Counted from the stretch's first letter, positions 8,478-30,918 are shown. The stretch is DNA of 64,000 bases from Solirubrobacterales bacterium (GCA_036379955.1 DASVFR010000037.1:37280-101279); one strand, 5' to 3'. The notes: generated from the sequence alone by a model not told the origin. Translations and numbers: made by a program.

Positions 8478-8478
8478 G

Positions 8479-8592
8479 GGACCTGCTGGGGTGGGGCCCT
8501 CCACTTGCGCCTTTTCTGTGGAGAGGAGCCGGCTGGCGCCTCTAGCTCACCGGAAAAGGCTAAAACGTTCCGGACCCCACCCCAGCAGGTCC
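8479..8592. repeat. 114-bp palindromic element with perfect 18-bp terminal inverted repeats
   Basis: GGACCTGCTGGGGTGGGG at 8479-8496 is the exact reverse complement of 8575-8592. Nested inner stems CTCCAC/GTGGAG and GCCTTTTC/GAAAAGGC. Confidence 0.85.
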
Positions 8593-8623
8593 TCACGGAA
8601 CGTCTCATGCACTCGGTTTTAGC

Positions 8624-10045
8624 TTGAAGCCGAAACCATCGGTTGCTGCGATGGTTAGCGCGGTAATGCGCCTGCTTCGGCCGGTACTGGCGGCACTCGT
8701 CCTACTCGCGGTTTTCGCGACGCCCGCGGCTGCGCGGACGGTGCACTTTGGCGGCGAAACGGTGCGGGTGCCGGCGGGGTGGTCGGTCGTTCGGCTCGCC
8801 CAGCATCCGCGGATGTGCGTGCGGCTCGATCGGCGCGCGGTGTATTTGGGGAGGCCCGGCGCCGCTCAGAGCTGTCCATCGCGGGCTCTTGGTCGTCGGA
8901 GGGCGATCCTGGTTGAATCTGACGCGCCGCGCGGGGCCGCCGCCAGCGCGGTCGGGCCGCCGACGGAAACGGAAGCCGTCACCGGCTCCGAAGACTTCAC
9001 CGGCCTCGGCTTCGACGCCTGCGCGACGCCCTCCTCGCGGGCGATGTCGGCTTGGGCCTCCTCGCCCTACCGGGCGATCGGCGTCTACATCGGCGGCGCC
9101 AACCGGGCCTGCTCGCAACCCAACCTGACACCGGAATGGGTCGGCGAGCAGGTGGGGGAGGGCTGGCACTTGATCCCCACTTACGTCGGCCTGCAGGCAC
9201 CGACCAGCTCCTGCGGCAGCTGCGCGGCGCTCAGCTCGAGCCTGACCCAGGCGAAACTGCAGGGCGCGGAAGCGGCCCGCGACGCGGTCGCCGAGGCCGA
9301 AGCGGTGGCGATGGGGCCCGGCAGCCCGCTCTACTTCGACATGGAGTCCTACACGCGGACGACGAGCGCCACGCGGGCGACGCTCACCTTCCTCTCCTCC
9401 TGGACCACGCAGCTGCACGCGCTCGGCTACGCCTCCGGCGTCTACAGCTCGAGCAGCTCCGGCATTGCCGACCTGGCCCGCGAATTCGGCGCCACCTACA
9501 CGATGCCCGACAACGTCTGGACCGCCAACTGGAACGGGGCCAGGAACGCGCTCGACGCCTACATCTCGGCCGACCTCTGGATCGAGCACCAGCGCATCCA
9601 CCAGTACCTGGGCGGTCACGACGAGACTTACGGACGGACGACGATCAACATCGACAACGACTACGTCGAAGGGGCGACCGTCGGCTCGAGCGCGGCGTTG
9701 CCGCCGCTGAGCGTGCGCAAGGTCGGGAGCGAGCGAGGCACCGTCAGCCTCTGGGTCCGCTGCGGCTGGGCCGAAGGCGAAAGCTGCCCGGGTCGGATCC
9801 TGCTGCGCACCCACGCCGCTCTACCGCTGCGGGCCAGGCCCGGCGCGCCGCGGCGGGTCGTGAGGATCGGGGTCAGCAGCCGTACCTTCGCGCTTGCCGG
9901 TGGGCGCTCCCACACCTACCGCGTCGCGCTCGACGAACGCGGTCGCGCCCTGCTGGCGCGTCACGGCTTCCTCAGAGCCCAGCTGCTGGTCGCGATCCCC
10001 GGCTCGCGCGTGGCCCGCGCCGTCCGCTTCAGCCTGGGTCGCTAG
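8624..10045 (+). CDS. secreted DUF1906/Rv2525c-like glycoside-hydrolase-fold protein (start may be 8651 or 8666)
   Basis: Signal peptide MRLLRPVLAALVLLAVFATPAAA, then GFDACATPS...YRAIGVYIGGANRAC...WHLIPTYVGLQAP, typical of the DUF1906 domain. Confidence 0.65.
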   Translation: MKPKPSVAAMVSAVMRLLRPVLAALVLLAVFATPAAARTVHFGGETVRVPAGWSVVRLAQHPRMCVRLDRRAVYLGRPGAAQSCPSRALGRRRAILVESDAPRGAAASAVGPPTETEAVTGSEDFTGLGFDACATPSSRAMSAWASSPYRAIGVYIGGANRACSQPNLTPEWVGEQVGEGWHLIPTYVGLQAPTSSCGSCAALSSSLTQAKLQGAEAARDAVAEAEAVAMGPGSPLYFDMESYTRTTSATRATLTFLSSWTTQLHALGYASGVYSSSSSGIADLAREFGATYTMPDNVWTANWNGARNALDAYISADLWIEHQRIHQYLGGHDETYGRTTINIDNDYVEGATVGSSAALPPLSVRKVGSERGTVSLWVRCGWAEGESCPGRILLRTHAALPLRARPGAPRRVVRIGVSSRTFALAGGRSHTYRVALDERGRALLARHGFLRAQLLVAIPGSRVARAVRFSLGR

Positions 10046-10122
10046 GCCGCTACTCCATTCCGCCGCCGTCCCGGGCCTTGGCCCCGTCAGCTTGCCGGAG
10101 AAGCTGCGCTGAAGCCGGTCGG

Positions 10123-10503
10123 TCAGACCCAGGTCGCCTGTGGAAGGTGCTCGAGGATCGTGCGGTCGGCGGTGACGAGGGGCACGTCGGCGACGATCGC
10201 CTGAGCCGCAATCAGGCGATCGAACGGATCGCGGGTCCAGGAGACGTCGATCGCGGCCCCCACGATGGACGCAAGCGAGACGTCGGCGACCCGTAGGCCG
10301 ATCGTCCTGCGCAGCGCGCCGAGGGGCGCTGCAGCCGGCTCGGTCACGCGCCCCACTTCGTGGAGGAAGGTCAGCTCCAGCTCCACCACCGGCGACACAT
10401 ATGGCTCACCGGACTCGATCAGCTCGCGCACCGTGGTCGGGATGCGCCGGTCTGCGCCCTCGTAGAGCCAGCCGACGATATGGGTGTCAAGAAGGATCAG
10501 GAT
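10123..10503 (-). CDS. PIN-domain toxin (VapC-like); no canonical start codon upstream of the conserved N-terminal Asp
   Basis: The frame reads ..ILILLDTHIVGWLYEG..RELIESG...TRDPFDRLIAAQAIVADVPLVTADRTI. The tracked ORF starts only at GTG 10431, downstream of the LLDTH acidic motif. It overlaps the antitoxin stop. Confidence 0.55.
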   Translation of the reverse strand: MLILLDTHIVGWLYEGADRRIPTTVRELIESGEPYVSPVVELELTFLHEVGRVTEPAAAPLGALRRTIGLRVADVSLASIVGAAIDVSWTRDPFDRLIAAQAIVADVPLVTADRTILEHLPQATWV

Positions 10504-10720
10504 TCCACTCCGAGGACCAGTCCATGTGGATCAGATCGTCCGGATCGCCGACGATGTACCCCTCGCGACGTGGAAGGCGGTCCCAGATCGACCGCTCCTC
10601 CTTGGGGGCGATCACCAGGACCTTGCCGTTGCGCTTGATCTCGAGCGGCTGGCCGGTCTCGAGGACCTCGTCCAGCAGCCGGTAGACGTCGGCGCGCAGC
10701 TTGGAGGCGGTGATTGTCAT
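10487..10720 (-). CDS. Phd/YefM-family antitoxin
   Basis: MTITASKLRADVYRLLDEVLETGQPLEIKRNGKVLVIAP is a typical Phd/YefM N-terminus. GGAG lies upstream of ATG 10720. The tracked longer start (10819) adds non-homologous sequence. Confidence 0.75.
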   Translation of the reverse strand: MTITASKLRADVYRLLDEVLETGQPLEIKRNGKVLVIAPKEERSIWDRLPRREGYIVGDPDDLIHMDWSSEWNPDPS

Positions 10721-10736
10721 CTTCAGCTCCTCAGGA

Positions 10737-10774
10737 TACGTACGTACAAGGAAAGGATAAAACGTACATACGTT
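10737..10774. promoter_or_regulatory. ACGTAC-containing palindromes upstream of the antitoxin (candidate operator)
   Basis: TACGTACGTA (self-complementary, 10737-10746) and AACGTAcaTACGTT (10761-10774) lie in the AT-richer stretch just upstream of the phd-like start. Confidence 0.4.
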
Positions 10775-10922
10775 AACCCGTGGGGCGGCGGCAGCTTGGA
10801 GATGAGCTTGCATCGTCATCGTGCGGCGAGCCTAGGGAGCGCCAGCGCACGCGTGGCGCGCCGAATCGCACGCATCTCAAACTTCTCCTCCGCCCGATCC
10901 GTCACTCTTTGCGATCGCAGGG

Positions 10923-11390
10923 ATGAGCCGCCGCGACCAGATCAAGTTGAGCGAGGGGGAGCTACTCGAGCTGCTCGACGGCGAGCGGATCGCGGTCGTC
11001 TCCAGCCTCGGCCCCCGCGGCTGGCCGCACTCGATGCCGATGTGGTTCGTCCCCCGCGCCGGCGAGGTCTGGATCTGGACCTACGCGAAATCGCAGAAGG
11101 TGCGCAACCTCGAGCGCGACCCGCGGGCCACCGTCCTGGTCGAGACCGGCCGCGAGTACGGCGAGCTGCGCGGCGCGGCGATCGAGGCCGAAGCCGAGAT
11201 CCACCGCGACCCCGCGACCGTTCTCGGGTTCGCGGAAGAGCTGACCATGCGCTACGCCGGGGGCATCTCCTCGGTGGAGGGCGACGCCAAGGCAGCGCTG
11301 GAAGCGCAGGCGCCGAAGCGGGTGGCGATCCACTTCAGGCCCGTTCGGGTCGCCACCTGGGACCACCGCAAGCTGGGAGGGACGTATTGA
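10923..11390 (+). CDS. pyridoxamine 5'-phosphate oxidase (PPOX) family protein, probably F420-dependent class
   Basis: IAVVSSLGPRGWPHSMPMWFV...VWIWTYAKSQKVRNLERDPRATVLVE... pattern of split-barrel PPOX proteins. Confidence 0.65.
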   Translation: MSRRDQIKLSEGELLELLDGERIAVVSSLGPRGWPHSMPMWFVPRAGEVWIWTYAKSQKVRNLERDPRATVLVETGREYGELRGAAIEAEAEIHRDPATVLGFAEELTMRYAGGISSVEGDAKAALEAQAPKRVAIHFRPVRVATWDHRKLGGTY

Positions 11391-12595
11391 GAGCCGCTAG
11401 GAAGGATTGGCGAAACTCGCGTGGGCGGGCCGGCGAGCGCCGGACCAAGGGGTACAAGGACGCAGGTCGGCCGAATAGCAGCGCTATTCGGCCGACCGAG
11501 GACGCCGTACCGCGCAGCGTCCGCCGCCGCCGGACGTGCGCGGGGGTTTCGCCAATCCTTCCTAGGACCGCCGCGCTCCTCGCCTCGATCGTCGCTGCGC
11601 TGCTCCTGCCGGCGGCGGCGCGGGCGCTGCCGCCCTCCTTCTTCGGGATCGCGCCGCAGACGCCGCTGACCGATGCCGACGCCGTCTACATGAAGGCGGC
11701 CCGGATCGGCACCGTGCGCTGGCCCGTCAACTGGGCGCTCGTGCAGCCAACCGCGAACGGGGGCTACGACTGGAGCAGCGTCGACCCCGCGGTCGAAGCG
11801 GCGCGCAAGCGCGGCTTGCAGGTCCTGCCCTTCATCTACGGGACGCCGCGCTGGGTCGCGCGGCAGCCGACGACGCTGCCGATCGACAGCGCCCGTGCCC
11901 GTCGCGCCTGGCTCGCCTTCGTGCGCGAAGCCGTGCGCCGCTACAGCCCGCGCGGCATCCATACCTGGCAGGTCTGGAACGAGGCCAACTTCTTCTACTT
12001 CGCCTACCCGGTCTCACCCGGGCGCTACGCTCGCCTACTGAAGCCGACCTACGCCGAGATCAAGGCTGAGGACCCGCGCGCGAAGGTGATCCTCTCCGGG
12101 CTCTTCGGCAATCCCGACGAGGGCGGCCGGCGTGGCATGGACGCCTCGAAGTTCCTCGCCGCCCTCTATCGCGTGCCCGGCATCGAGCGCTACTTCGACG
12201 GCGTCGCCCTGCACCCATACGCCTTCCACGTCGACGACCTCGAAGCGCTGACCGAAGAAATGCGCGAAGTCGTCCTCGACAACGGCGACCCCGGCGCCGG
12301 CCTCTACGTCACCGAGATGGGCTGGGGCTCCCAGAACGATTCCAACGTCGTCGCCTTCGAGCAGGGGATCGCCGGCCAGGCGCGCGAACTGCGCAAGGCC
12401 TACAGCTTCCTGATCGCCAACCGGGTGCGCCTCAACCTCAAGGCGGCCTACTGGTACTCGTGGAAAGACAACCCGGAATACACCGCCTGCTCCTTCTGCG
12501 ACTCGGTCGGCCTCTTCCGCGCCGGCGTCAGCTTCAAGCCGAAGCCGGCATGGCGATCGTTCGTGGCGCTGACCGGCGGCCGAGCGCGCCCCTAG
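11387..12595 (+). CDS. secreted clan GH-A-like glycoside hydrolase (PslG/GH39-like); start unresolved
   Basis: WQVWNEANF (acid/base NE) and YVTEMGWGS (nucleophile E). Signal-like RRRRTCAGVSPILPRTAALLASIVAALLLPAAARA. The only in-frame ATG/GTG/TTG upstream of the signal region and outside upstream genes is TTG 11387, so the 5' coding part would be element-derived. Confidence 0.6.
   Translation: MRAARKDWRNSRGRAGERRTKGYKDAGRPNSSAIRPTEDAVPRSVRRRRTCAGVSPILPRTAALLASIVAALLLPAAARALPPSFFGIAPQTPLTDADAVYMKAARIGTVRWPVNWALVQPTANGGYDWSSVDPAVEAARKRGLQVLPFIYGTPRWVARQPTTLPIDSARARRAWLAFVREAVRRYSPRGIHTWQVWNEANFFYFAYPVSPGRYARLLKPTYAEIKAEDPRAKVILSGLFGNPDEGGRRGMDASKFLAALYRVPGIERYFDGVALHPYAFHVDDLEALTEEMREVVLDNGDPGAGLYVTEMGWGSQNDSNVVAFEQGIAGQARELRKAYSFLIANRVRLNLKAAYWYSWKDNPEYTACSFCDSVGLFRAGVSFKPKPAWRSFVALTGGRARP
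11397..11565. mobile_element. 169-bp MITE-like palindromic element (family 2), perfect 20-bp terminal inverted repeats
   Basis: CTAGGAAGGATTGGCGAAAC at 11397-11416 and its exact reverse complement at 11546-11565. Central hairpin GGTCGGCCGAATAGCAGCGCTATTCGGCCGACC. A diverged copy lies downstream of groEL. Confidence 0.8.
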
Positions 12596-21988: not shown

Positions 21989-22993
21989 TCAGCCGACCGG
22001 CGACCGGGACATCTGCTGCTCGGCCTGCGCGTGGATCCACTCGTAGGTCTTCGTCAGACCGTCGCGCAGCGAGATCGAGGGCTGCCAGCCGTACGTCCGC
22101 TCGATCAGGGCGTTGTCGGAGTTGCGCCCTCGCACTCCCTGCGGCGCGTCCAGCTTGTAGCTCCGCTCCAGCTCGATGCCGGCGATCTCCTCAGCCAGGT
22201 CGACGAGCTGGTTGATGGTCACGAGCTCGGAGGAGCCGAGGTTGATCGGCTCGATCCGGGGGCCCTCGGCGATCATCAGGGTCCCCTTCACGCAGTCGTC
22301 GATGTACATGAAGCTGCGGGTCTGCTTGCCGTCGCCCCAGATCTCGATCCGGTGCTCGCCGCTGAGCTGCGCTTCCGCCACCTTGCGGCAGATCGCCGCC
22401 GGCGCCTTCTCGCGACCCCCGTCCCAGGTCCCATGCGGCCCGTAGGCGTTGTGGTAGCGGGCGACGCGGGTCTCGAGGCCGAAGTCCTCCATGAAGTGAC
22501 GGCACATGCGCTCGCTGAAGAGCTTCTCCCAGCCGTAGCCGTCCTCCGGCATCGCCGGGTAGGCGTCGGCCTCGCGCAGCGCCACCACCTCGGGGCTGCC
22601 CTGCTTTTCGGCCGCGTAGACGCACGCCGAGGAGGAGTAGAAGAAGCGCTCGACGCCGCTGTCGCGCGCCGCGATCAGCATGTGGGTCGAGGGCAGCACC
22701 GAGAGCATGCAGAGGGCTTTGTTGCCCTCGATGAAGCCCATACCGCCCATGTCGCAGGCGAGGTTGTAGACCTCCGAGGCGCCCTCGACAGCCTCGCGGG
22801 CCGCCTCGAGCAGGGAGACGTCGAGGACCCGGTTGTCGGCCCCCTCGAAGACCTGATGCCACTCCTCCAGCGGCTTGCAGTCCACCGAGCGCACCTCGCG
22901 GCCCTGGCGCAGCAGCTCGCCGACGAGATGACCGCCGATGAAGCCGCCGCCGCCGGCAACGAGAACGGCGCCGCCTGGAGTCGAACTCGACAT
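21989..22993 (-). CDS. gme: GDP-mannose 3,5-epimerase-like SDR
   Basis: Runs of identity to the GME family as I remember it: LACDMGGMGFI, FFYSSSACVY, YGPHGTWDGGREKAPAAICRK, GVRGRNSDN. Confidence 0.75.
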   Translation of the reverse strand: MSSSTPGGAVLVAGGGGFIGGHLVGELLRQGREVRSVDCKPLEEWHQVFEGADNRVLDVSLLEAAREAVEGASEVYNLACDMGGMGFIEGNKALCMLSVLPSTHMLIAARDSGVERFFYSSSACVYAAEKQGSPEVVALREADAYPAMPEDGYGWEKLFSERMCRHFMEDFGLETRVARYHNAYGPHGTWDGGREKAPAAICRKVAEAQLSGEHRIEIWGDGKQTRSFMYIDDCVKGTLMIAEGPRIEPINLGSSELVTINQLVDLAEEIAGIELERSYKLDAPQGVRGRNSDNALIERTYGWQPSISLRDGLTKTYEWIHAQAEQQMSRSPVG

Positions 22994-23061
22994 CCGCCGG
23001 AATACTAGTCAGCCACGCTCTCGGTCATCATTCGCTCGCCTTCACGCTAACCCGACCGAGG

Positions 23062-23203
23062 TCAACGGATCAGCTTGACGGCGACGCTGACTTCTGGGAG
23101 GTCTGTCCAATCTTTGTCCGCTGTGACCGCAGGCACCTCGAAACGGGCAGCCAGCGCGAGGCACGCCCGGTCGCCGAAGGACAGCCCTTGGGCACCGGGC
23201 TCG
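23062..23203 (-). pseudogene. 3' fragment of a PIN-domain (vapC-like) gene separated from its 5' part by the 3.08-kb insertion
   Basis: Reads ..GAQGLSFGDRACLALAARFEVPAVTADKDWTDLPEVSVAVKLIR*, a classic VapC C-terminus. It abuts the left terminal repeat. Confidence 0.7.
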
Positions 23204-23576
23204 GGTAGTGGGTCAGTTTGAACTGACCTGCGTCCTGATCGCTTCGGCCTGCGCTGGGGTCAGCAACCAACGCCCTCCTTTGCCAGGGGCATCGCCTGGA
23301 AGAGTTCATGGGCAACCCGCCGAGTTTGGCGAGCACCAGCGCTTCGCGAGCCAGTCTGAGCGCTCCCCCATAGCTGAACAGCAAGCTCGGTAGGGGTCAG
23401 CGTCTCCATGCGCTGAGGCTAGCGAGCAATCAACCCAGCAGCGCCGCGATCAACAACGCGGGCGATTTGAGGTAGCGGGCCGCCGAGCTGTCGCCTATGC
23501 GAGACTGGGACCATGAGTGCCAGACCGATCCTGCATATTTGGGTACGCGGGTTGACTTCTCGCCGAGATTGCCGAT

Positions 23577-23786
23577 ATGGTGCCTGCGATGGCCGTTGAG
23601 ATTGGCGCCAATGGCGGGTTTGGCGAGTGCGTCTCCCTTACGGGAGACGATGCTACGCGCTTTGTGGACGACATTCTGCGTCCGTCTACTGACGCGCGTC
23701 GACTCGCCCATCTAGAGCGTTCCGACGAGTCTTTCGAGCGCTCCTTCTCGCCAGAGCCGATCAGCGAACTACCGACTGGCGAGTAA
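23577..23786 (+). CDS. possible DUF1778-like antitoxin (C-terminal part only; N-terminal RHH region not intact)
   Basis: SLTGDDATRFVDDILRPSTDARRLAHL resembles the TacA/DUF1778 C-terminal segment (LSxxDxxxFxxxLxxPxxPNxxL). It lies immediately upstream of the GNAT gene. Confidence 0.35.
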   Translation: MVPAMAVEIGANGGFGECVSLTGDDATRFVDDILRPSTDARRLAHLERSDESFERSFSPEPISELPTGE

Positions 23787-23792
23787 GCCACA

Positions 23793-24410
23793 TTGGCGCC
23801 GCAGCTCCGGCGCTTGGCGCTTCCGCTTGCTGCGCCACTGCTCGATGCGATTGGCGGGTTCGACTGCGTCGGCGAGCACCATCCAGGCGATCCGGTCGCT
23901 GACAACGTCAACAGCTTCCTGGCGGGCATGCGATTCCTAGATGGCTTGCGGCACGGCGTTAGCGCGACGTATCTCTGGATCGATCCGGGCGCTTCGCCCC
24001 AGATCGTCGGATACGCGACCTTGACCTTTGACTCAGTTCGCTTGACGAACGCAGAGAAGAGACGCATGGAGAACATCGGCTTCTCTGATTTCGGTGCCCT
24101 GCGCATCCAGATGATAGGCGTGGACCATCGCCACCAGCGAAACGGTCATGGCGGCGAGCTACTGCGAAGCGTTACGGGCCTGGCCCGCAAACTTTCCCAA
24201 GACGTAGCTGTTCGCTTCCTCCTAGCGGACGCCAATGTGCGGATGGTCGATTGGTATGAAGGAGCAGGCTTCGTACGAAACCAAGCTGACCGCTATGCGA
24301 CGAGGCCCGATCCCGAGCGCAGCGTTTCGATGCGCCTCGACCTGCTTGAGGGCCTTCAAGGAGAGGGCGTCGAAGCGGCTCCCGCAGTCGCAGAGGCGAT
24401 GAGCGAGTAG
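23793..24410 (+). CDS. GNAT-family acetyltransferase, TacT/KacT-like toxin candidate
   Basis: FDCVGE motif near the N-terminus, IVGYATLTFDSV, VDHRHQRNGHGGELL (acetyl-CoA loop), and the position downstream of an antitoxin-like ORF. TTG start. Confidence 0.55.
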   Translation: MAPQLRRLALPLAAPLLDAIGGFDCVGEHHPGDPVADNVNSFLAGMRFLDGLRHGVSATYLWIDPGASPQIVGYATLTFDSVRLTNAEKRRMENIGFSDFGALRIQMIGVDHRHQRNGHGGELLRSVTGLARKLSQDVAVRFLLADANVRMVDWYEGAGFVRNQADRYATRPDPERSVSMRLDLLEGLQGEGVEAAPAVAEAMSE

Positions 24411-24419
24411 GTCCAAAGC

Positions 24420-24555
24420 TAGTCAAGCAGCCTGCGATCTCTTCAAGCGACCAGACGTGATTGGCCACCCCGGTTGCCATCGCTGGCGTCCGGGGATAGC
24501 GATCCTTCAGCGCTTTGTGAGAACGGGCGAAGTTGTAGAGCCACAATCGCCAGCA
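24420..24555 (-). pseudogene. C-terminal remnant of an IS1-family-like DDE transposase
   Basis: WLYNFARSHKALKDRYPRTPAMATGVANHVWSLEEIAG matches the YNFxRxHxxL...TPAMxxGxxxHVWxxEE C-terminal signature seen in proteins annotated IS1 family. An upstream in-frame stop leaves no catalytic domain. Confidence 0.55.
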
Positions 24556-24770
24556 GCGCCGCAGGCCACCTCCGGAGTTCTGGATCAAGGTCGGGCTAGC
24601 CGTCAGCGCTGCGCAGCTACTCACCGGCTGGCACGCGCTGCTGTCGCCCTCGTTGTGCTCGCCCTCCCGGTGTGGCTATTCCGCCCACGAGCCAATGCCG
24701 CATTCCTTTGATGGAGGCCAAGCCATAGATCGGTACGGCAAAAGTCCTCTCAAGGTAAAGGAGAAATTCT

Positions 24771-26159
24771 GTGACGACCGATACGCCCACCGTGAATCCG
24801 GTGGGCTATCTCGAAACCGGCGTCCTATATTGCGACGACAATCTCCGACGTCTGACGCAGTTCCCCGCTGACTGCGTCGATCTGGTCTATCTCGACCCGC
24901 CGTTCTTTTCCAATCGCAACTACGAGGTTATCTGGGGTGATGAGGCGGAGGTCCGGTCCTTCGAGGATCGCTGGGAGGGTGGCATAGATCACTACGTCGA
25001 ATGGATGTCACACCGACTTCGTGAGCTGCATCGAATCTTGAAGCCAACGGGCTCTCTCTACTTGCACTGCGATTGGCACGCGAGCCATCATCTCCGGCTC
25101 CTGCTTGATGAAATTTTCGGCCCGCAAATGTTCAGAAACGAGATTGTGTGGCACTACCGCCGCTGGACCGGCGAGTCTCGATCCTTCTTGAAGATGCACG
25201 ACACACTGTTCTTCTACACCAAGACAAAAGACTACGAGTTCAATCGCCAGTTCACTGACTACACGGAGGCTTCGGCGAAACGGAAGGAGAACTACCATAC
25301 TCGGATTAAGGGGGATGAAGTCTTCGTGACTTCGGTCGACGAGCGGGGAGTAGCTGAGAACGATGTATGGCAGATTCCGCTAATCAATTCCCAGGCCAGA
25401 GAGCGGCTTGGCTACCCAACGCAAAAGCCCGAGGCGCTCCTTGAGCGCATCATTGCTGCCTCCAGCAATGAGGGAGGCATCGTCTTGGATCCTTTTGCGG
25501 GCTGTGGCACTACTCAGGTGGTAGCAGAGAGAATGCGTCGGCAGTGGATCGGCATCGACATCAGTCCTACGGCGGTCAACCTGATGCGTCGAAGGCTTCT
25601 GAAGGCGACTAATGGAGCAGTAGATATGCAGGTTATTGGCCTCCCAGTAACGGAGGTGGAGCTTGCGAAACTCAAGCCGTTCGAGTTCCAAAACTGGGTT
25701 ATTCAGCGTGTCAACGGTACTCATTCCCCCAGACTTACTAACGACAAGGGCATTGACGGATTCTGGTTTATGACCCATGATCCGATCCAGGTAAAGCAGG
25801 GGAAGGTCGGCAGGAACGTTGTCGATAATTTCGAGACCGCGATTGAGCGTGCGAAGTGCGATATCGGTTACATCATCGGCCTTGACTTCACACGCGACGC
25901 AAGGAGTGAGGTAGCCCGTGTCAGGAGAGTCAAGGGTCTTGATATCAAGTTGATTCGGGTCCGAGACCTAATTGGGGATCAGGAGAACGATCTTCGTACG
26001 CCGGACGTTCTAGCGAAGCTAGATCCAGCAAATCGGCCTAAAACATTCCTTGATATGCCACTGCCGGAGGGAAGAAAGAAGCGAGCACGCCCTTCGGTTA
26101 ATGATCTGCTCGGTAAGAGCAAGCGATCTAGGAAAAAAGCTTCGCTGAAAAACGCGTAG
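24771..26159 (+). CDS. beta-class N6A/N4C DNA methyltransferase fused to a C-terminal Mrr-like PD-(D/E)xK restriction-endonuclease domain
   Basis: Motif IV (LVYLDPPFFS) precedes motif I (LDPFAGCGTT). The C-terminal segment FEFQNWVIQRV...DKGIDGF...PIQVKQGKVGRNVVDNFETAI...GYIIGLDFTRDA has the Mrr_cat pattern. AAGGAG RBS before GTG 24771. Confidence 0.75.
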   Translation: MTTDTPTVNPVGYLETGVLYCDDNLRRLTQFPADCVDLVYLDPPFFSNRNYEVIWGDEAEVRSFEDRWEGGIDHYVEWMSHRLRELHRILKPTGSLYLHCDWHASHHLRLLLDEIFGPQMFRNEIVWHYRRWTGESRSFLKMHDTLFFYTKTKDYEFNRQFTDYTEASAKRKENYHTRIKGDEVFVTSVDERGVAENDVWQIPLINSQARERLGYPTQKPEALLERIIAASSNEGGIVLDPFAGCGTTQVVAERMRRQWIGIDISPTAVNLMRRRLLKATNGAVDMQVIGLPVTEVELAKLKPFEFQNWVIQRVNGTHSPRLTNDKGIDGFWFMTHDPIQVKQGKVGRNVVDNFETAIERAKCDIGYIIGLDFTRDARSEVARVRRVKGLDIKLIRVRDLIGDQENDLRTPDVLAKLDPANRPKTFLDMPLPEGRKKRARPSVNDLLGKSKRSRKKASLKNA

Positions 26160-26210
26160 CTCGTAGCTGCTCGCAGGCTACCGTTGCCAACGCGCTTGAG
26201 CGGTGGCGCG

Positions 26211-26231
26211 AGCGATCTCTGATCGCTTTTT
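26211..26231 (+). terminator. intrinsic terminator after the methyltransferase
   Basis: AGCGATC-tct-GATCGCT stem-loop followed by TTTTT. Confidence 0.6.
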
Positions 26232-26280
26232 GAGGAAGAAATCGCTCGGATCTAGGGCGATTTCAAACTGACCCACTACC

Positions 26281-26338
26281 CGGGCTCGTCTTGCAGCAGG
26301 CCAGCAACGCTGAGGCGTCGAGACTCGAAGCCGGGATG
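26281..26338 (-). pseudogene. 5' fragment of the interrupted vapC-like gene
   Basis: Reads ..LDASALLA / LLQDEPG (one frameshift between them) directly downstream of the antitoxin stop. It ends at the right terminal repeat. Confidence 0.55.
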
Positions 26339-26527
26339 TCAGCCCTTGGCACGTCGCCGCTCGGCCTCTGCCCGCTCTTCTGCGCGGACCTCGGCTCGAC
26401 GGTCGGCGATCAGCTCATCTGCCAGGCTCACCCTAGGGGCAACGTGCGCGAACATGCCGCGCATCTGCTCGGCCGCCTCGCGGCGACGCTTGACAACGGC
26501 TTCGTCTGCCTTGGTGGCGTGGGCCAT
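26339..26527 (-). CDS. small antitoxin-like protein (VapB-like C-terminal motif)
   Basis: 62 aa, ...VSLADELIADRRAEVRAEERAEAERR, an antitoxin-type tail. It sits immediately upstream of the PIN fragments. Confidence 0.45.
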   Translation of the reverse strand: MAHATKADEAVVKRRREAAEQMRGMFAHVAPRVSLADELIADRRAEVRAEERAEAERRRAKG

Positions 26528-26608
26528 TCCCTCATGGTATCGGCCGGGGTCGAAGCGACCTCAATCCGGGGCCCCTGGGGCAACATGCCATTTGCGTCGG
26601 CTCTGGCC

Positions 26609-27343
26609 CTAGATGAGGATCTCGCGTGAGATCACGGTGCGGCGCACCTGTTGGCGCAGGAACCACTTGGCGCGGATCGTGGCGCTGTTGTAGGCCGCGT
26701 CTAGCGAGCCGCTGCGGCCGATGAAGTAGGGCAGCGCCGCGAACGGCCGAAACGGGTTGCCGGCGGCGAGGGCGGCGAGCATGCGGCGCGCGGCGACGAC
26801 CTCGAACCGCATTCCCGTCCTCTCGTCCATCTCGGGGCCCATCGCGGTGAAGTACTCGTGGAAGACGGCGCGGGAGGCCCCGAAGAACCTGCTGTCCATG
26901 TGGTCGAGAGTTGGGACGATCGCGCCGCATACGCCGGCGGTCCGCTCGAGCCGGGGCAGGCACGCCTCGACGTTCTCGACGAAGAGCCTGCCGGTGCACT
27001 TGAAGATCCACTCGACCCGCTGGGCGAGCTCGGAGCCGGCGAAGTCGTCGATCAGCTCCGCCTCGCCGGCGCTCTTGCCGCCCGCCTCCGAGCCACGGCT
27101 CTCGCAGGCGAGGACGTGCACCTCGCGACCCGCCTGCCGACCGGCGTCGGCGAAGACGGAGGTGGGCCATCCCGAGTTCTCGGCGACGGCGATCTCCCAG
27201 CTAGGCGGCAGGGCCCGGCACCAGCGGCCGAGCGCGTCGAGGTATTCGGCCTCGCGCGCCTGCGGGTCGCGAACGGACAGGGCCGGGGTCTCGGGGTCGG
27301 GCGCGACGGTGGCGGTGAGCAGCAGCGCGCAGCTGGCGTTCAT
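26609..27343 (-). CDS. hypothetical protein, last gene of the polysaccharide operon
   Basis: 244-aa ORF 9 nt downstream of the GT2 gene stop (same strand). No family recognised (..KSAGEAELIDDF...IFKCTGRLFVENV..). Confidence 0.5.
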   Translation of the reverse strand: MNASCALLLTATVAPDPETPALSVRDPQAREAEYLDALGRWCRALPPSWEIAVAENSGWPTSVFADAGRQAGREVHVLACESRGSEAGGKSAGEAELIDDFAGSELAQRVEWIFKCTGRLFVENVEACLPRLERTAGVCGAIVPTLDHMDSRFFGASRAVFHEYFTAMGPEMDERTGMRFEVVAARRMLAALAAGNPFRPFAALPYFIGRSGSLDAAYNSATIRAKWFLRQQVRRTVISREILI

Positions 27344-27352
27344 CTCTTGACC

Positions 27353-28285
27353 CTAGAGGCTGTGGCGCCGTCGCCTGAGCGCGAGCGCCTGTCGCGCCGA
27401 TAGGTCGGTCAGCCCGCTCTCGGCGTGCTCGCGCCGCGCCGCGCCCTTGGCCGCCCGCCAGCCCCTCCAGCGGCCGCGGACGCCGCGCAGGGTGCGGTCC
27501 TGCAGGAGCTGGCCCGCGCAGATCGCCGTCTCGACCAGCAGCGCTCGGGCGAGGAGCGCCGGTCGCCGGCCGAATCCGTACCGGCGCAGCATGTAGCCGC
27601 GGCTCCAGCCGGTCATCTCGTACTTGGCGGCCGATCTGGCGCCCATCGTCTCCGAGTAGGCGTGGACGCCGCGCGCCAATGGGGCGAGCCGGCAGCGGGC
27701 GCCCTCGCGTCGCAGGCGCAGCGCCAAGTCGAGGTCCTCGTAATAGAGGAACATCCGCTCGTCGAAGCCGCCGACGCGCTCGAAGGCCACGCGCCGGAAG
27801 AGCGCCGCGCCGCCGGTCGGCCCAAGTGGGTCCACCGCGTCGGCCAGGGCCTCGACCGGCTCGCCGTTGAGGTAATCGAAGCCCAGCAGGGTGCGGTCGG
27901 CGATCACCCCGGCGGAGTCGATGCGGCCGGGGTCGCGTTCGCTGAGCAGGACGGCGGCGACCATCTCGACGTCCTCGTCGAGGACGTCGAGCAGCCCGGC
28001 GACGAATCCCGGCTCGACCGTGACGTCGTCGTTGAGGAAGACGATCGGGTCACCGGGCCCCTCGCGGACCGCCCGGTTGAGGGCCCTGCCGAAGCCCAGG
28101 TTCTCCCCGAAGTCGACCGTGCTCACCCAGGGGAAGCGCTCGCGGGCGAGGACCCCGGCGGCGTCCTCGCCGCTGTTGTCGGCGATCACGACGTCGGGCC
28201 TCGGCTCCTGCTCGGCCAATGCCGCCAGGGTTCGCGCCAGCCGCTCGCCGGCGCGCAGCGTGGGGATGTAGACGGTGGGCTTCAC
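27353..28285 (-). CDS. GT2 glycosyltransferase (rhamnosyltransferase-like)
   Basis: VYIPTLRAGERL...VVIADNSGED...ENLGFGRALNRAV...VFLNDDVTVEPGF...YYEDLDLALR. Confidence 0.7.
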   Translation of the reverse strand: MKPTVYIPTLRAGERLARTLAALAEQEPRPDVVIADNSGEDAAGVLARERFPWVSTVDFGENLGFGRALNRAVREGPGDPIVFLNDDVTVEPGFVAGLLDVLDEDVEMVAAVLLSERDPGRIDSAGVIADRTLLGFDYLNGEPVEALADAVDPLGPTGGAALFRRVAFERVGGFDERMFLYYEDLDLALRLRREGARCRLAPLARGVHAYSETMGARSAAKYEMTGWSRGYMLRRYGFGRRPALLARALLVETAICAGQLLQDRTLRGVRGRWRGWRAAKGAARREHAESGLTDLSARQALALRRRRHSL

Positions 28286-29425
28286 TCAGCGGTCCAGCTC
28301 GAAGGCGGCTCGGACCTGCTCGACGAAGCGATCGCCGTGGACCTCCTCGGCGTAGCGCCGCAGGTTCTCCTCGTAGCGCGCCGGAGCGCCGGGGTCGAGG
28401 GCCAGCTCCAGGATTGCGTCCCGGATCGCGGCTGGATCGTCGGGGTCGGGAGTGAGGCCGAGGCCGTATCGCTCGACGATCCTGCCGGCGACGTTGTCGT
28501 TGCCGATCACGACCGGCGTGCGGGCGCCGGCGGCCTCGATCAGCACCCTGGAGCCGGGCGCCTCCTTCCAGCCAAAGGAGAGCAGCGCGCAGCGCGCGCC
28601 TCCCATCGCCTCCATCGCGGCCGCGTAGGGAACCCTCGTCAGGTCGGTCTCGACCTTCACCCCGGCTTCGCGCAGCGCCGCCAGCTCGCGCTCGAGCTGC
28701 TCGCGGTACTCGGGAACCGGCGAGCCGTAGATCGTCAGCGGCAGCCCCTCGCAGCCCTCGGCGAGCGCGGCCGCGAGGCGGTCGATGCCCTTGCGCCGGT
28801 CGATCGAGCCGAAGAGGAAGCAGCCCGAGCGCTCCTCGGGCCGGCGGCGAGGGGGCTCGACCTCGAGGCGCGGCTCGGCCAGCCAGCGGGCCGGCGCCCC
28901 GCGCCTGCGCTGCCAGCGAGCGACCGCGGCCTGGTCGAGGCCGAAGACCGCGTACGCGTCACGGCGCCGCCGCCAGCGGGCAAGGCTGAGCTCCTTGAAG
29001 GCGGCTCGGGCCCGCTCCTTCGGGCTCAGCGGCAGCCCGTAGCTCCCCGGCAGCTGCGCCTTGGCGAACATGACGAAGGCGCTGACCCGGCAATCGAAGC
29101 GAGGCGCCGAGGCCAGCCAGCGCAGGATCGGATCGGCGAAGAGGATGATCGCCTGGTCGGGCCGGCTGGCCGCGATCGACTCGCGCAGGAGCTCGATCTC
29201 GCGTTTGGCCAGCGTCGCCTTGTCGAGGCCCTCTCCCGCGCCCGGCCGCGGCCGCGGCTCGCCCAGCGAGTGGGTCGTGACGCCGAGGTCGGAGCCGAGC
29301 TCGGCGAGGACGGGCTCTGGGGCCGCGACTACGACCTCGGCGCGCGGTGCCAGCGCCTCGGCGAAAGCGCGGGCGTAGAAGTTGTGGTGGCCGCCCGCGT
29401 TCCACTCGAAGAGGCAGATCCTCAT
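28286..29425 (-). CDS. GT-B fold glycosyltransferase (GT4-like)
   Basis: Starts MRICLFEWNAGGHHNF. C-terminal half has ...FLFGSIDRRKGIDRL...GSRVLIEAAGARTPVV. The tracked 541-aa ORF is N-terminally over-extended. ATGA overlap with the flippase stop. Confidence 0.6.
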   Translation of the reverse strand: MRICLFEWNAGGHHNFYARAFAEALAPRAEVVVAAPEPVLAELGSDLGVTTHSLGEPRPRPGAGEGLDKATLAKREIELLRESIAASRPDQAIILFADPILRWLASAPRFDCRVSAFVMFAKAQLPGSYGLPLSPKERARAAFKELSLARWRRRRDAYAVFGLDQAAVARWQRRRGAPARWLAEPRLEVEPPRRRPEERSGCFLFGSIDRRKGIDRLAAALAEGCEGLPLTIYGSPVPEYREQLERELAALREAGVKVETDLTRVPYAAAMEAMGGARCALLSFGWKEAPGSRVLIEAAGARTPVVIGNDNVAGRIVERYGLGLTPDPDDPAAIRDAILELALDPGAPARYEENLRRYAEEVHGDRFVEQVRAAFELDR

Positions 29426-30918
29426 GCCGGCGCTGCCCGGCGCCGGAGCAGGGGCCGGATGGTGTCGAGGATGCGCGCCACGTCGGCCCGGGAGAATATG
29501 AGCTCGAGGGGCAGCCAGACCGCGCATACGAGGACGAGGGAGAGCAGGAGCCCGGCGAGGTCGTCGGCGGGGTTCAGGAGCTGGGGGACGAGAGCGGCGA
29601 GCGCCGCGATGCAGCTCGCCTTCGCGACGGCGAGGAGCGAGCGCCTCACCGTCGGCCGGGCGCCGAGCGTCAGCGCCGCGAGGCCGACCACGGTGGAGGC
29701 GGTGATCGCCAGGCCGACGCCGGCCTCTCCCATCGGCGCCGTCAGCAGCGCCGCGAGGGCGAGCAGCACCGCCGATTCGCAGATCGCCGAGCCGAGCGGG
29801 AAGTTGGCCTCGCCCTCGGCCATGAAGGAGCCGATCATCGTCGCGCAGGCGCTGGCGGTCAGCATCATGCCGAGCGAGCCGACGAGGACGACGTCCGCGG
29901 TCGGCATCCATTCCTCGCCCAGGACAACCGCGATCAGCGGCTGCGCCGCGCCGGCGACCAGCGCCAGCGGCAGCCCGGCGACGATCGCCGTGTAGGCGAC
30001 GATCTGGGCCGTGCGCCGGGGCCGAAGCTCGGGTTCGCGCGAGAGAGCGGGGAAGGAGACCCGGGAGACGGCGGAGGTGAGGGCGACCGGGAAGGAGAAG
30101 AGGCGCTTCGCCATCGCGTAGTAGCCGGCCACCGGCGCCCCGCCGATCGCGGCGACGATGCCGACGAAGCCCAGTTCGCGCAGCAGGTAGATCCCCTGCA
30201 GGACGCTGATCCGCACGCCGAACCCGATCAGCGGCCGCACGGGCCCGAGGCGGAGACGGGCGCGGCGGACGAAGGGCTGGATCGCCCAGGCGGCGGCGAC
30301 GCCGGCGACCGCCCCCGCCGGCACCGCGCCGGCCAAGCTGAAGGCGCCCAAACCGGCGACCGCCGCGAGCAGCGCGAAGGCGTTGAACACCAGCGTTTCG
30401 GCGGTCTCGACCATGGCGACGCGGCCGAAGGCGAGGCGGCGCTCCATCAGCACCATCGGCATCGCCCGCGCCGCGTAGAGCGGCATCGCCAGGGCGGCGA
30501 CCGCGATCGTCCGCAGCGCTTCGCTGTCGCCGCCGGCGGCGGGCACGATCGCGAACGCGGCCAGGACCAGCAGCGCGCTCAGCGCCGTCGCGAAGGCGAG
30601 CATCGCCCCGCTCACCGCCGACTGGACATCCGGTGAGGGGTCCTCCTCGCGTCGCACCAGCGCCGCCGGCAACCCCAGCTCGGCCGCGCGCTGGCCGACC
30701 ATCTGCACGGCGAGGGCGATCGCGAAGAGGCCGTAGTCCGCGGGCGTCAGCAGGCGCGCGAGGACGACGGTGACGCCGGCGGTGAGCAGCTGCAGCCCCA
30801 GGGTGCGGCCGACGAGGACTCCCACTCCGCGGGCGGCGACCGCGCCGAGGGCGGGCTCGGCGGGCTGCGCGGCCTCGAACCGCTCCGCTTCCTCGAACCG
30901 CTCCTCCCCGTTCGGCAC
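29422..30918 (-). CDS. wzx: Wzx-type oligosaccharide flippase (polysaccharide biosynthesis protein, MOP superfamily)
   Basis: About 12-14 TM helices. N-terminal RTLGLQLLTAGVTVVLARLLTPADYGLFAIALAV is typical of the Wzx/PST family. Confidence 0.65.
   Translation of the reverse strand: MPNGEERFEEAERFEAAQPAEPALGAVAARGVGVLVGRTLGLQLLTAGVTVVLARLLTPADYGLFAIALAVQMVGQRAAELGLPAALVRREEDPSPDVQSAVSGAMLAFATALSALLVLAAFAIVPAAGGDSEALRTIAVAALAMPLYAARAMPMVLMERRLAFGRVAMVETAETLVFNAFALLAAVAGLGAFSLAGAVPAGAVAGVAAAWAIQPFVRRARLRLGPVRPLIGFGVRISVLQGIYLLRELGFVGIVAAIGGAPVAGYYAMAKRLFSFPVALTSAVSRVSFPALSREPELRPRRTAQIVAYTAIVAGLPLALVAGAAQPLIAVVLGEEWMPTADVVLVGSLGMMLTASACATMIGSFMAEGEANFPLGSAICESAVLLALAALLTAPMGEAGVGLAITASTVVGLAALTLGARPTVRRSLLAVAKASCIAALAALVPQLLNPADDLAGLLLSLVLVCAVWLPLELIFSRADVARILDTIRPLLRRRAAPA

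Follow-up and report, generated by a model that had tools for sequence, protein, structure and literature searches.

We analysed a 64,000 nt stretch of a Solirubrobacterales genome (GCA_036379955.1, DASVFR010000037.1:37280-101279), here called the window, in which a 3,077 bp element at positions 23204-26280 interrupts a vapC gene for a PIN-domain toxin. The original prediction, made from the sequence of the window, described a cargo transposon of the IS1 type inserted in vapC. The element has exact inverted ends and lies between copies of an 8 bp direct repeat. It carries a DNA methyltransferase gene, a gene pair that includes a GNAT acetyltransferase, and remnants of the genes of an insertion sequence (IS). 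Loci from other genomes and metagenomes that were fetched for comparison are referred to by L numbers. From left to right, the features of the region are as follows.

23070-23195, minus strand: 3' fragment of the vapC (PIN) pseudogene, with its stop codon at 23070-23072 and the junction of a 216 nt deletion at approximately 23191/23192; aligns with the 3' part of the genes in L139 and L140.
23196-23203, no strand: left copy of the 8 bp target-site duplication, CGGGCTCG; homologues have a single CGAGCCGG here.
23204-23222, plus strand: terminal inverted repeat GGTAGTGGGTCAGTTTGAA on the transposase side (canonical right end); at least 120 genome loci and 109 viral contigs contain the identical 19-mer.
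23213-23409, minus strand: small frameshifted open reading frame (ORF; METLTPTELAVQLWG.. and then ..GRWLLTPAQAEAIRTQVSSN before the stop) from a six-frame translation, with its TGA stop inside the inverted repeat; a doubtful gene.
23577-23786, plus strand: 69 aa acidic ORF, the partner of the GNAT gene and a putative antitoxin; in homologues, which have 65 aa, the start corresponds to the Met at 23589.
23793-24410, plus strand: 205 aa GNAT acetyltransferase, full length (Pfam Acetyltransf_1, E = 8e-5).
24419-24537, minus strand: remnant of an IS1-family transposase, the last ~38 codons (..YNFARSHKALKDRYPRTPAMATGVANHVWSLEEIAG), with a 1 nt deletion just before the ancestral TAG stop at 24419-24421.
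24771-26159, plus strand: 462 aa beta-class N6/N4 DNA methyltransferase with a C-terminal domain of the Mrr_cat fold, antisense to the ancestral transposase direction.
26178-26231, minus strand: remnant of a small basic ORF, the last ~17 codons (..KKRSEIARATAQARWQR and stop; compare ..AARRSEIAKKAASTRWGK and stop in L131, and ..KKRAEIAKKAALARW in L086).
26231-26280, minus strand: canonical left end, consisting of the 19 bp inverted repeat (26262-26280) and ~30 subterminal bases that are common to the L130-L134, L073 sublineage.
26281-26288, no strand: right copy of the target-site duplication, CGGGCTCG.
26289-26352, minus strand: 5' fragment of the vapC pseudogene, with a GTG start at 26350-26352 that overlaps the end of vapB and a 1 nt deletion at approximately 26299/26300 (GCTGGC-CTGCTG).
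26339-26527, minus strand: intact vapB-like antitoxin gene, 62 aa; proteins that are 95-97% identical occur elsewhere.

The two 19 bp ends are exact: GGTAGTGGGTCAGTTTGAA is found at 23204-23222 and its exact reverse complement at 26262-26280. They are the only two copies in the window, even with up to three mismatches allowed, and none of 100 dinucleotide-preserving shuffles matched GGTAGTGGGTCAGTTTGAA when three mismatches were permitted. Both ends are abutted by the exact direct repeat CGGGCTCG. This octamer is common in the G+C-rich window (18 copies, with 20 expected), and the chance that two given flanks agree at eight of eight positions at 70% G+C is approximately 5e-5. A repeat search returned a 27 nt inverted repeat, solely since CGGGCTCG is nearly self-complementary; the ends were parsed family-wide as a 19 bp end plus an 8 bp duplication. 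The G+C content is 0.51-0.63 inside the element and 0.67-0.76 outside it, and this difference of 10-20 points from the flanks points to a foreign origin. The interior is in two parts, with a G+C content of approximately 0.60-0.63 in the GNAT half and 0.51-0.56 in the methyltransferase half. The exact inverted ends, the 8 bp duplication and the lower interior G+C of the original prediction were all recovered, the last in a computed profile.

With the element and one copy of the repeat removed, ..LLQDEPGAQGLSFGDRACLALAARFEVPAVTADKDWTDLPEVSVAVKLIR is read through to a stop codon in one frame downstream of the 62 aa vapB-like ORF, as had been predicted, and the reconstructed empty site reads ...CTGCTGCAAGACGAGCCCGGTGCCCAAGGGCTG.... 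The reconstituted peptide matches positions 87-118 of the 120 in Pfam PIN, weakly and short of the gathering score (E = 0.036; 15.1 bits against 23.6). In L139 and L140, a VapB that is 97% identical to that of the window is followed by an uninterrupted 140 aa PIN ORF that overlaps vapB by 14 nt. The vapC fragments in the window align to the two ends of this PIN gene, and a single CGAGCCGG is found where the window has the duplicated CGAGCCCG, which identifies the target as vapC.

These observations bear on two ways in which the 3.1 kb might not be a single transposition unit. One is that two independent solo ends or miniature elements flank horizontally acquired DNA. Solo ends and miniatures of 32 and 68 bp are frequent in the lineage described below, the left end in the window is followed by CTGACC.., resembling the 32 bp palindromic mini-element of L043, and the two halves of the cargo differ in G+C. 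However, an exact 8 bp direct repeat at the outermost ends has the low chance probability given above, excision restores one continuous vapC frame that is collinear with intact homologues, and the remnants of a small ORF and a transposase are ordered and oriented as in a single ancestral element. We regard this arrangement as very improbable. The other, which we consider slightly less probable still, is that the junctions between low- and high-G+C DNA mark a metagenomic chimera formed at a repeated 19-mer. A chimera at a repeat would not make a matching 8 bp target duplication, nor would it split one gene such that the halves rejoin in frame. In its favour, the window comes from a metagenome assembly and soil bacteria widely carry the 19-mer as a repeat. 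The sole other record, a Logan contig from run SRR25158496 that is 100% identical to window positions 22297-30491, is probably the same data and hence no independent confirmation.

The vapC gene carries two further lesions. Relative to the intact homologues, one C has been lost at approximately 26299/26300, which shifts the frame, and 216 nt (72 codons) of the PIN domain are missing, with the junction 4 nt beyond the duplication. By eye, this junction has a 2 nt GC microhomology. An adjacent deletion mediated by the IS was considered and rejected, as it would be expected to begin at the end of the IS and to take one copy of the duplication with it. Here the junction lies 4 nt farther from the element and both copies are still complete; the deletion in vapC was therefore a separate event. 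The PIN gene had been described as already internally shortened when the element arrived; the shortening stands, and it may have come before or after the insertion. In L139, the island around vapBC (7396-11644) includes genes for a caspase-like peptidase (Peptidase_C14) and for proteins with ThsB_TIR and CAP12-PCTIR_TIR domains, and an integrase gene. Besides a D12 methyltransferase, the corresponding island in L140 (666-4398) encodes an integrase. The vapBC pair itself seems to be cargo of mobile islands.

When one genome per species was scanned for the exact 19-mer, at least 120 loci were returned. Among the matches listed were Acidobacteriota, Alpha-, Gamma- and "Delta"-proteobacteria, Actinomycetota, Planctomycetota, Chloroflexota, Nitrospirota, Gemmatimonadota, Verrucomicrobiota and others, and a scan of IMG/VR accounted for the 109 viral contigs. 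Directly inside the 19-mer, the sequence differs between loci. Pairing of ends within loci yielded more than 40 complete elements with exact 8 bp duplications of unrelated sequence, and complete elements range from miniatures of 32 and 68 bp to 5 kb. The autonomous copies include L086 (Nitrospira; 2128 bp), L133 (3694 bp), L131 (4106 bp) and one in a Mesorhizobium loti plasmid (CP050295.1; 3370 bp), each of which encodes a 277 aa transposase. The 19-mer is therefore a transposon end, bounding autonomous elements that have an intact DDE transposase and 8 bp duplications elsewhere. The counter-possibility raised at the outset, a common repeat unrelated to transposition, is answered by the same loci: the 19-mer is common and dispersed, yet tied to transposition, and is common because it is a transposon end.

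As the window retains only 38 aa of the transposase, tests of IS1-family membership were made on the autonomous relatives. Their 277 aa transposases match Pfam DDE_Tnp_IS1 at 27.3-28.4 bits (gathering score 24.1), a match that covers only ~41 residues. In NCBIfam, the top match is transpos_IS1, at 34-53 bits and below its cutoff of 100. The gene in the M. loti copy is labelled 'IS1 family transposase' in GenBank, and other plasmid homologues are labelled likewise. IS1-family ends, as described in ISfinder, start with GGnnnTG (GGTGATG and GGTAATG in IS1 itself) and are flanked by 8-9 bp duplications; the ends in the window start GGTAGTG on both sides and are of the GGnnnTG type. With the Pfam match above its gathering score, transpos_IS1 the top though sub-cutoff NCBIfam match and the plasmid annotations in agreement, the predicted assignment to the IS1 family was retained as probable. 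In ORF listings, the transposase of the relatives is a single uninterrupted 277 aa ORF with no frameshift, and its N-terminus appears helix-turn-helix-like by eye. A single-ORF transposase would fit a single-ORF subgroup of the family and not classical IS1. Single-ORF members of the family that can carry passengers form the ISMhu11-type group of ISfinder. A literature search for the end sequence, which did not cover ISfinder, returned only unrelated primer matches.

Among the fetched loci, 37 of 69 scorable transposase copies are defective, many of them C-terminal remnants. Cassettes that lack a transposase but share these ends and have perfect duplications are common in this lineage; examples are those in L101, L099, L005, L092, L096 and L047, miniature inverted-repeat elements of 68 bp and mini-elements of 32 bp. 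The cassette in L099 (2008 bp) carries an FMN reductase gene and a DUF4440 gene. That in L101 (3192-3650; 459 bp), which has exact ends and the duplication TGACGGTC, consists almost wholly of one gene for a STAS-domain protein of the anti-sigma antagonist type; a second copy of this gene 3 kb away (L101:6497-6942) has an IS end on one side only.

The 32 bp palindromic mini-elements (L043:657-688 and L240:5801-5832) consist of two overlapping 19 bp ends, GGTAGTGGGTCAGTTTGAACTGACCCACTACC, and the one in L043 is flanked by an exact 8 bp duplication, CATCCGGG. The left end in the window is followed by a degenerate version of this motif, CTGACCtgCgtCC. The 68 bp elements (GGTAGTGGGTCAGTTTGAATTTTGACCCC..GAAAATTCAAACTG..CCACTACC) were found in several Acidobacteriota genomes (L009, L038, L069 and L111), with exact 8 bp duplications around two of the four (L009 and L069). 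In two cases among ~235 loci (L048:1917-1962 and L130:1393-1438), two elements of the lineage abut end-to-end with exactly 8 bp between them, which could reflect either end-targeted insertion or a junction of the dimer or circle type.

The closest relatives of the element, L130-L134, were found by a metagenome scan with the right-end 33-mer. Its subterminal bases are 98-100% identical to theirs over 48-55 nt, and 92% identical to those of L073. The 3' end of the transposase gene (window positions ~24420-24541) shares 88-89% nucleotide identity with L131 and L133. The layout of L131 and L133 is an end, an 82 aa winged helix-turn-helix-like ORF, an XRE regulator, a 70-92 aa basic ORF ending ..RSEIAKKAA..RW, an antisense cargo slot, the transposase, downstream cargo and the other end. 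In L131, the antisense slot contains a helix-turn-helix/M78-peptidase gene and a 217 aa ORF. The downstream cargo in relatives of this type is 0.6-1 kb and contains DUF1508 or DUF2335. Read on the minus strand, the window element keeps this order: left end, basic-ORF remnant, methyltransferase gene (antisense), transposase remnant, GNAT pair (antisense), small ORF and right end.

In tblastn comparisons, the transposase remnant is 74% identical to residues 238-275 of the L095 transposase (E = 6e-15). The basic-ORF remnant shares 10 of 15 residues (E = 0.12), a match that is weak alone but lies at the expected position. No transposase-like sequence other than the 38 aa remnant was found in the 64 kb window. 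Because only the last ~38 transposase codons remain (~45 in the original prediction), the element cannot move unaided. These features indicate that it is a gutted derivative of the L131/L133 sublineage. The small frameshifted ORF at 23213-23409 had no Pfam or NCBIfam match and no convincing relative in the fetched loci; it ends in ..SSN with its stop in the inverted repeat, the same geometry as the ..DSN end of the canonical transposases of the lineage. A putative fossil inner end at 24403-24421 (10 of 19 matches when aligned in the L114 register; binomial p = 0.026), and with it a composite origin from an IS and a miniature element, was dropped because cargo, and no end, is found there in the closest autonomous relatives, L131, L133 and L095.

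Measured against ~200 homologues, the GNAT protein is full length, and homologues have 204-206 aa and 60-98% identity. When the family profile was compared with the PDB, the best matches were 7byy, 6ajm, 6ajn, 6gts, 5zgn, 6g96 and 5xun (E = 3e-6 to 1e-3; 22-30 bits). Its depositors named 5zgn the toxin KacT, and we take 6ajm, 6ajn and 6gts to be AtaT and 6g96 to be TacT, which are tRNA-acetylating toxins. In L135, L136 and L137, too, the acidic partner ORF is conserved, with a gap of 6 bp before the GNAT gene and close alignment throughout. It had no match to DUF1778, ribbon-helix-helix (RHH) or any other Pfam or NCBIfam model at E = 0.1 or better, and no curated NCBIfam or PADLOC model matched the GNAT protein or its partner. 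A GNAT toxin module had been proposed; the pair resembles tRNA-acetylating toxins, but the partner is not a DUF1778 antitoxin. A toxin-antitoxin role for the pair is plausible. In L135-L137, which are from Solirubrobacterales genomes, the pair is free-standing, outside elements with these ends, and shares 76% nucleotide identity with window positions 23537-24396. As the pair occurs outside such elements, it appears to be a self-contained cassette captured by the IS. A 1.9 kb contig from ERR12983021 carries a GNAT gene whose product is 98% identical. Beyond this gene lies an antisense ORF that is cut off by the end of the contig after at least 77 aa, which suggests that there is a GNAT-bearing version whose transposase gene is longer.

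The second cargo gene encodes a protein with a Pfam N6_N4_Mtase domain (E = 3e-53, 181 bits) that includes DPPF at residues 42-45. The PADLOC MTase_II model matches it with 279 bits, and PADLOC models cover the methyltransferase part only. Relatives of the methyltransferase in the PDB are M.RsrI, CcrM and MboIIA. The family has at least 8000 relatives, against which the window protein is full length. Residues ~321-391 match Mrr_cat (24.9 bits, gathering score 21; E = 2.4e-5), and D325, D329 and Q340-V-K342 are invariant across 29 homologues. A methyltransferase-nuclease fusion had been predicted. Its domain architecture is upheld by the Pfam matches and the invariant D..D..QxK residues, but 'nuclease' is a fold assignment only, made from the 24.9-bit Mrr_cat match. 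The product could alter the methylome of its host.

More distant fusions of the same architecture are carried by four other copies of the lineage (L008, L130, L170 and L189), with three different slots used among the five copies. In the cargo of these four, the match of the C-terminal region to the 'inactive REase' family NA-iREase1 is equally good or better. An association between this cargo and loss of the transposase was examined (none of five copies intact versus 32 of 65; Fisher p = 0.058) and is not claimed. Homologues of the methyltransferase stand alone in phages, where one that is 62% identical lies among the head genes of Mu-like phages. The closest homologue (75% aa identity) is a passenger of an IS1595-family element in L122 (137-3844; GCA_038258095.1). 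This 3.7 kb element has 42 nt inverted ends and also contains ORFs of 271 and 66 aa.

The whole 3,077 bp entered vapC in a single transposition event, carried out by an IS1-type enzyme, and the element is now unable to supply its own transposase. We conclude that the segment at 23204-26280 is very probably a mobile insertion cassette (MIC), a non-autonomous and passenger-carrying derivative of an IS1-family IS. The non-autonomous nature that had been predicted follows from the 38-codon remnant; the defence or addiction function also ascribed to the cargo is putative. The ancestor would have been of the L131/L133 type, with an end, winged helix-turn-helix-like and XRE regulators, a small basic ORF, an antisense cargo slot, a 277 aa transposase gene, a downstream cargo slot and a second end. 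Deletions would have taken out the regulators along with most of the basic ORF, and the transposase gene would have been cut to its last ~38 codons and frameshifted. The middle slot would hold the methyltransferase/Mrr_cat fusion and the downstream slot the two-gene GNAT cassette. An IS1-type DDE transposase would then have recognised the two identical 19 bp ends and inserted the whole segment in one event in codons ~24-27 of vapC, duplicating 8 bp of the target. Further movement would need a related transposase in trans, which any resident autonomous copy could in principle supply because the end sequence is identical across the lineage. Judged against their homologues, the three cargo ORFs are full length. 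We infer expression of these genes, and roles for their products as a solitary modification enzyme and as a stabiliser resembling a toxin-antitoxin pair.

It is a little better than an even chance that the present unit was mobilised in trans as a cassette. The competing possibility, to which we give somewhat less than an even chance, is that an autonomous passenger-carrying IS of the L131/L133 type inserted in vapC and then lost its regulators and transposase by internal deletions, possibly with cargo exchanged by recombination with another copy, such that the present unit never moved without a transposase. The element bears several independent lesions (two deletions and the 1 nt frameshift in the transposase remnant), as expected of decay in place, and the high proportion of defective transposase copies in the lineage, many reduced to C-terminal remnants, fits this too. 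The GNAT gene in the ERR12983021 contig appears to run into a longer transposase ORF, and the two further lesions in vapC mean that time may have passed since the insertion. Against decay, transposase-less cassettes with perfect duplications are abundant in the lineage, so mobilisation in trans does occur. Furthermore, the ends still match at 19 of 19 positions and the duplication at eight of eight, though these sequences are short and the ends are conserved family-wide. Nothing separates the two possibilities directly.

Several observations weigh against the interpretation as an IS1-family MIC. A second copy of the exact 3.1 kb unit was not found and the exact methyltransferase protein was found on one contig only, so its movement as a transposase-less unit is putative; a blastn search of plasmids with the whole element returned no match. 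The 64 kb window contains no autonomous partner. The vapBC loci without an interruption lie in other neighbourhoods as paralogous or xenologous copies, and hence are empty sites at the level of the gene, not of the allele. No empty site in the same context was found: exact look-ups of the neighbouring 334 aa epimerase-like protein, the 244 aa protein and the 69 aa ORF returned nothing or only the source contig, and the 29 nt pattern of the empty junction had no matches in JGI metagenomes. The IS1 assignment rests on NCBIfam scores (49-53 bits) below the cutoff of 100 and the 41-residue Pfam match, and no zinc-finger motif of the CxxC type was seen by eye at the transposase N-terminus, though no domain search was aimed at it. 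Finally, the cargo functions are predicted from sequence only.

To the right of vapBC and the cassette, window positions 26609-30491 contain genes for GT2 and GT1 glycosyltransferases (Pfam). To the left, a 334 aa ORF (21989-22993) reads like an NAD-dependent epimerase, by reading only. The surroundings look like a polysaccharide biosynthesis cluster.

The interpretation as a MIC explains both the 3 kb island of low G+C content and the dead vapC gene, and it names the likely source of a solitary DNA methyltransferase. More broadly, one IS1-like lineage has spread through soil bacteria of many phyla and into viral contigs, yielding many miniature and gene-carrying derivatives, and a simple scan with the 19-mer finds cargo cassettes with toxin-like and DNA-modification genes that ordinary annotation overlooks. 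The wider lineage may merit description if ISfinder lacks it, given its near-invariant 19 bp end, its presence in viral contigs, its modular slots and its recurrent methyltransferase cargo.

A bolder proposal, which we consider unlikely, is that the element is one piece of an undescribed cross-phylum cargo-shuttle system. Such a system would use a 19 bp end that hardly varies among Actinomycetota, Acidobacteriota, Pseudomonadota, Planctomycetota, Nitrospirota and (pro)phage contigs, and because of this any resident transposase could mobilise any cassette with those ends. Its cargo slots, two or three in number, would be modular, and its many cassettes would measure between 32 bp and 5 kb. Solitary fusions of a methyltransferase and a restriction endonuclease (REase) fold would have been taken up repeatedly, in five independent cases that are all transposase-disabled (the comparison with p = 0.058 above). 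If this were true, the methyltransferase may pre-modify the DNA of its carrier and so take it past restriction barriers, and it and the GNAT pair may jointly stabilise the cassette after loss of the transposase. MICs and passenger-carrying ISs are already established concepts, and the element is of a known kind of mobile element, not a new kind; the current understanding of how such elements work is unchanged.

Comparison with the IS1 family reveals a DDE transposase with partial matches to IS1 models, GGnnnTG-type ends, 8 bp duplications and members of up to 4-5 kb with passengers. Unlike the family in general, this lineage has a 19 bp end that is unusually uniform across phyla and transposases with NCBIfam scores of half the family cutoff. 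Classical IS1 has an N-terminal zinc finger and helix-turn-helix and is expressed via the InsA/InsAB' frameshift, whereas this lineage has one 277 aa ORF and no frameshift.

The GNAT pair resembles the GNAT/DUF1778 systems TacAT, AtaRT and KacAT in that a small ORF precedes the GNAT gene, KacT is among the best structural matches and the pair is on a mobile element. However, the GNAT protein in the window, like its 204-206 aa homologues, is ~30 residues longer, and its partner is a 65 aa acidic protein that matches neither DUF1778 nor RHH. The IS1595-family element in L122 has the 75% identical N6_N4_Mtase plus Mrr_cat gene beside its transposase gene, and so has the same type of cargo on a related IS family. 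It differs from the window element in its ends, in its intact IS1595-type transposase (Zn_ribbon_IS1595 and DDE_Tnp_IS1595) and in having no GNAT module.

The concepts of the MIC and the transporter IS (tIS) were defined by the ISfinder group (PMC3129680). Like these, the window element has IS-type ends and a target duplication around passenger genes and no functional transposase, and would depend on a related IS in trans. The autonomous relatives, as IS copies with extra passenger genes, correspond to the definition of a tIS. Unlike an old, streamlined MIC, the element in the window retains recognisable remnants of the transposase and accessory ORFs, and is thus visibly a recent derivative.

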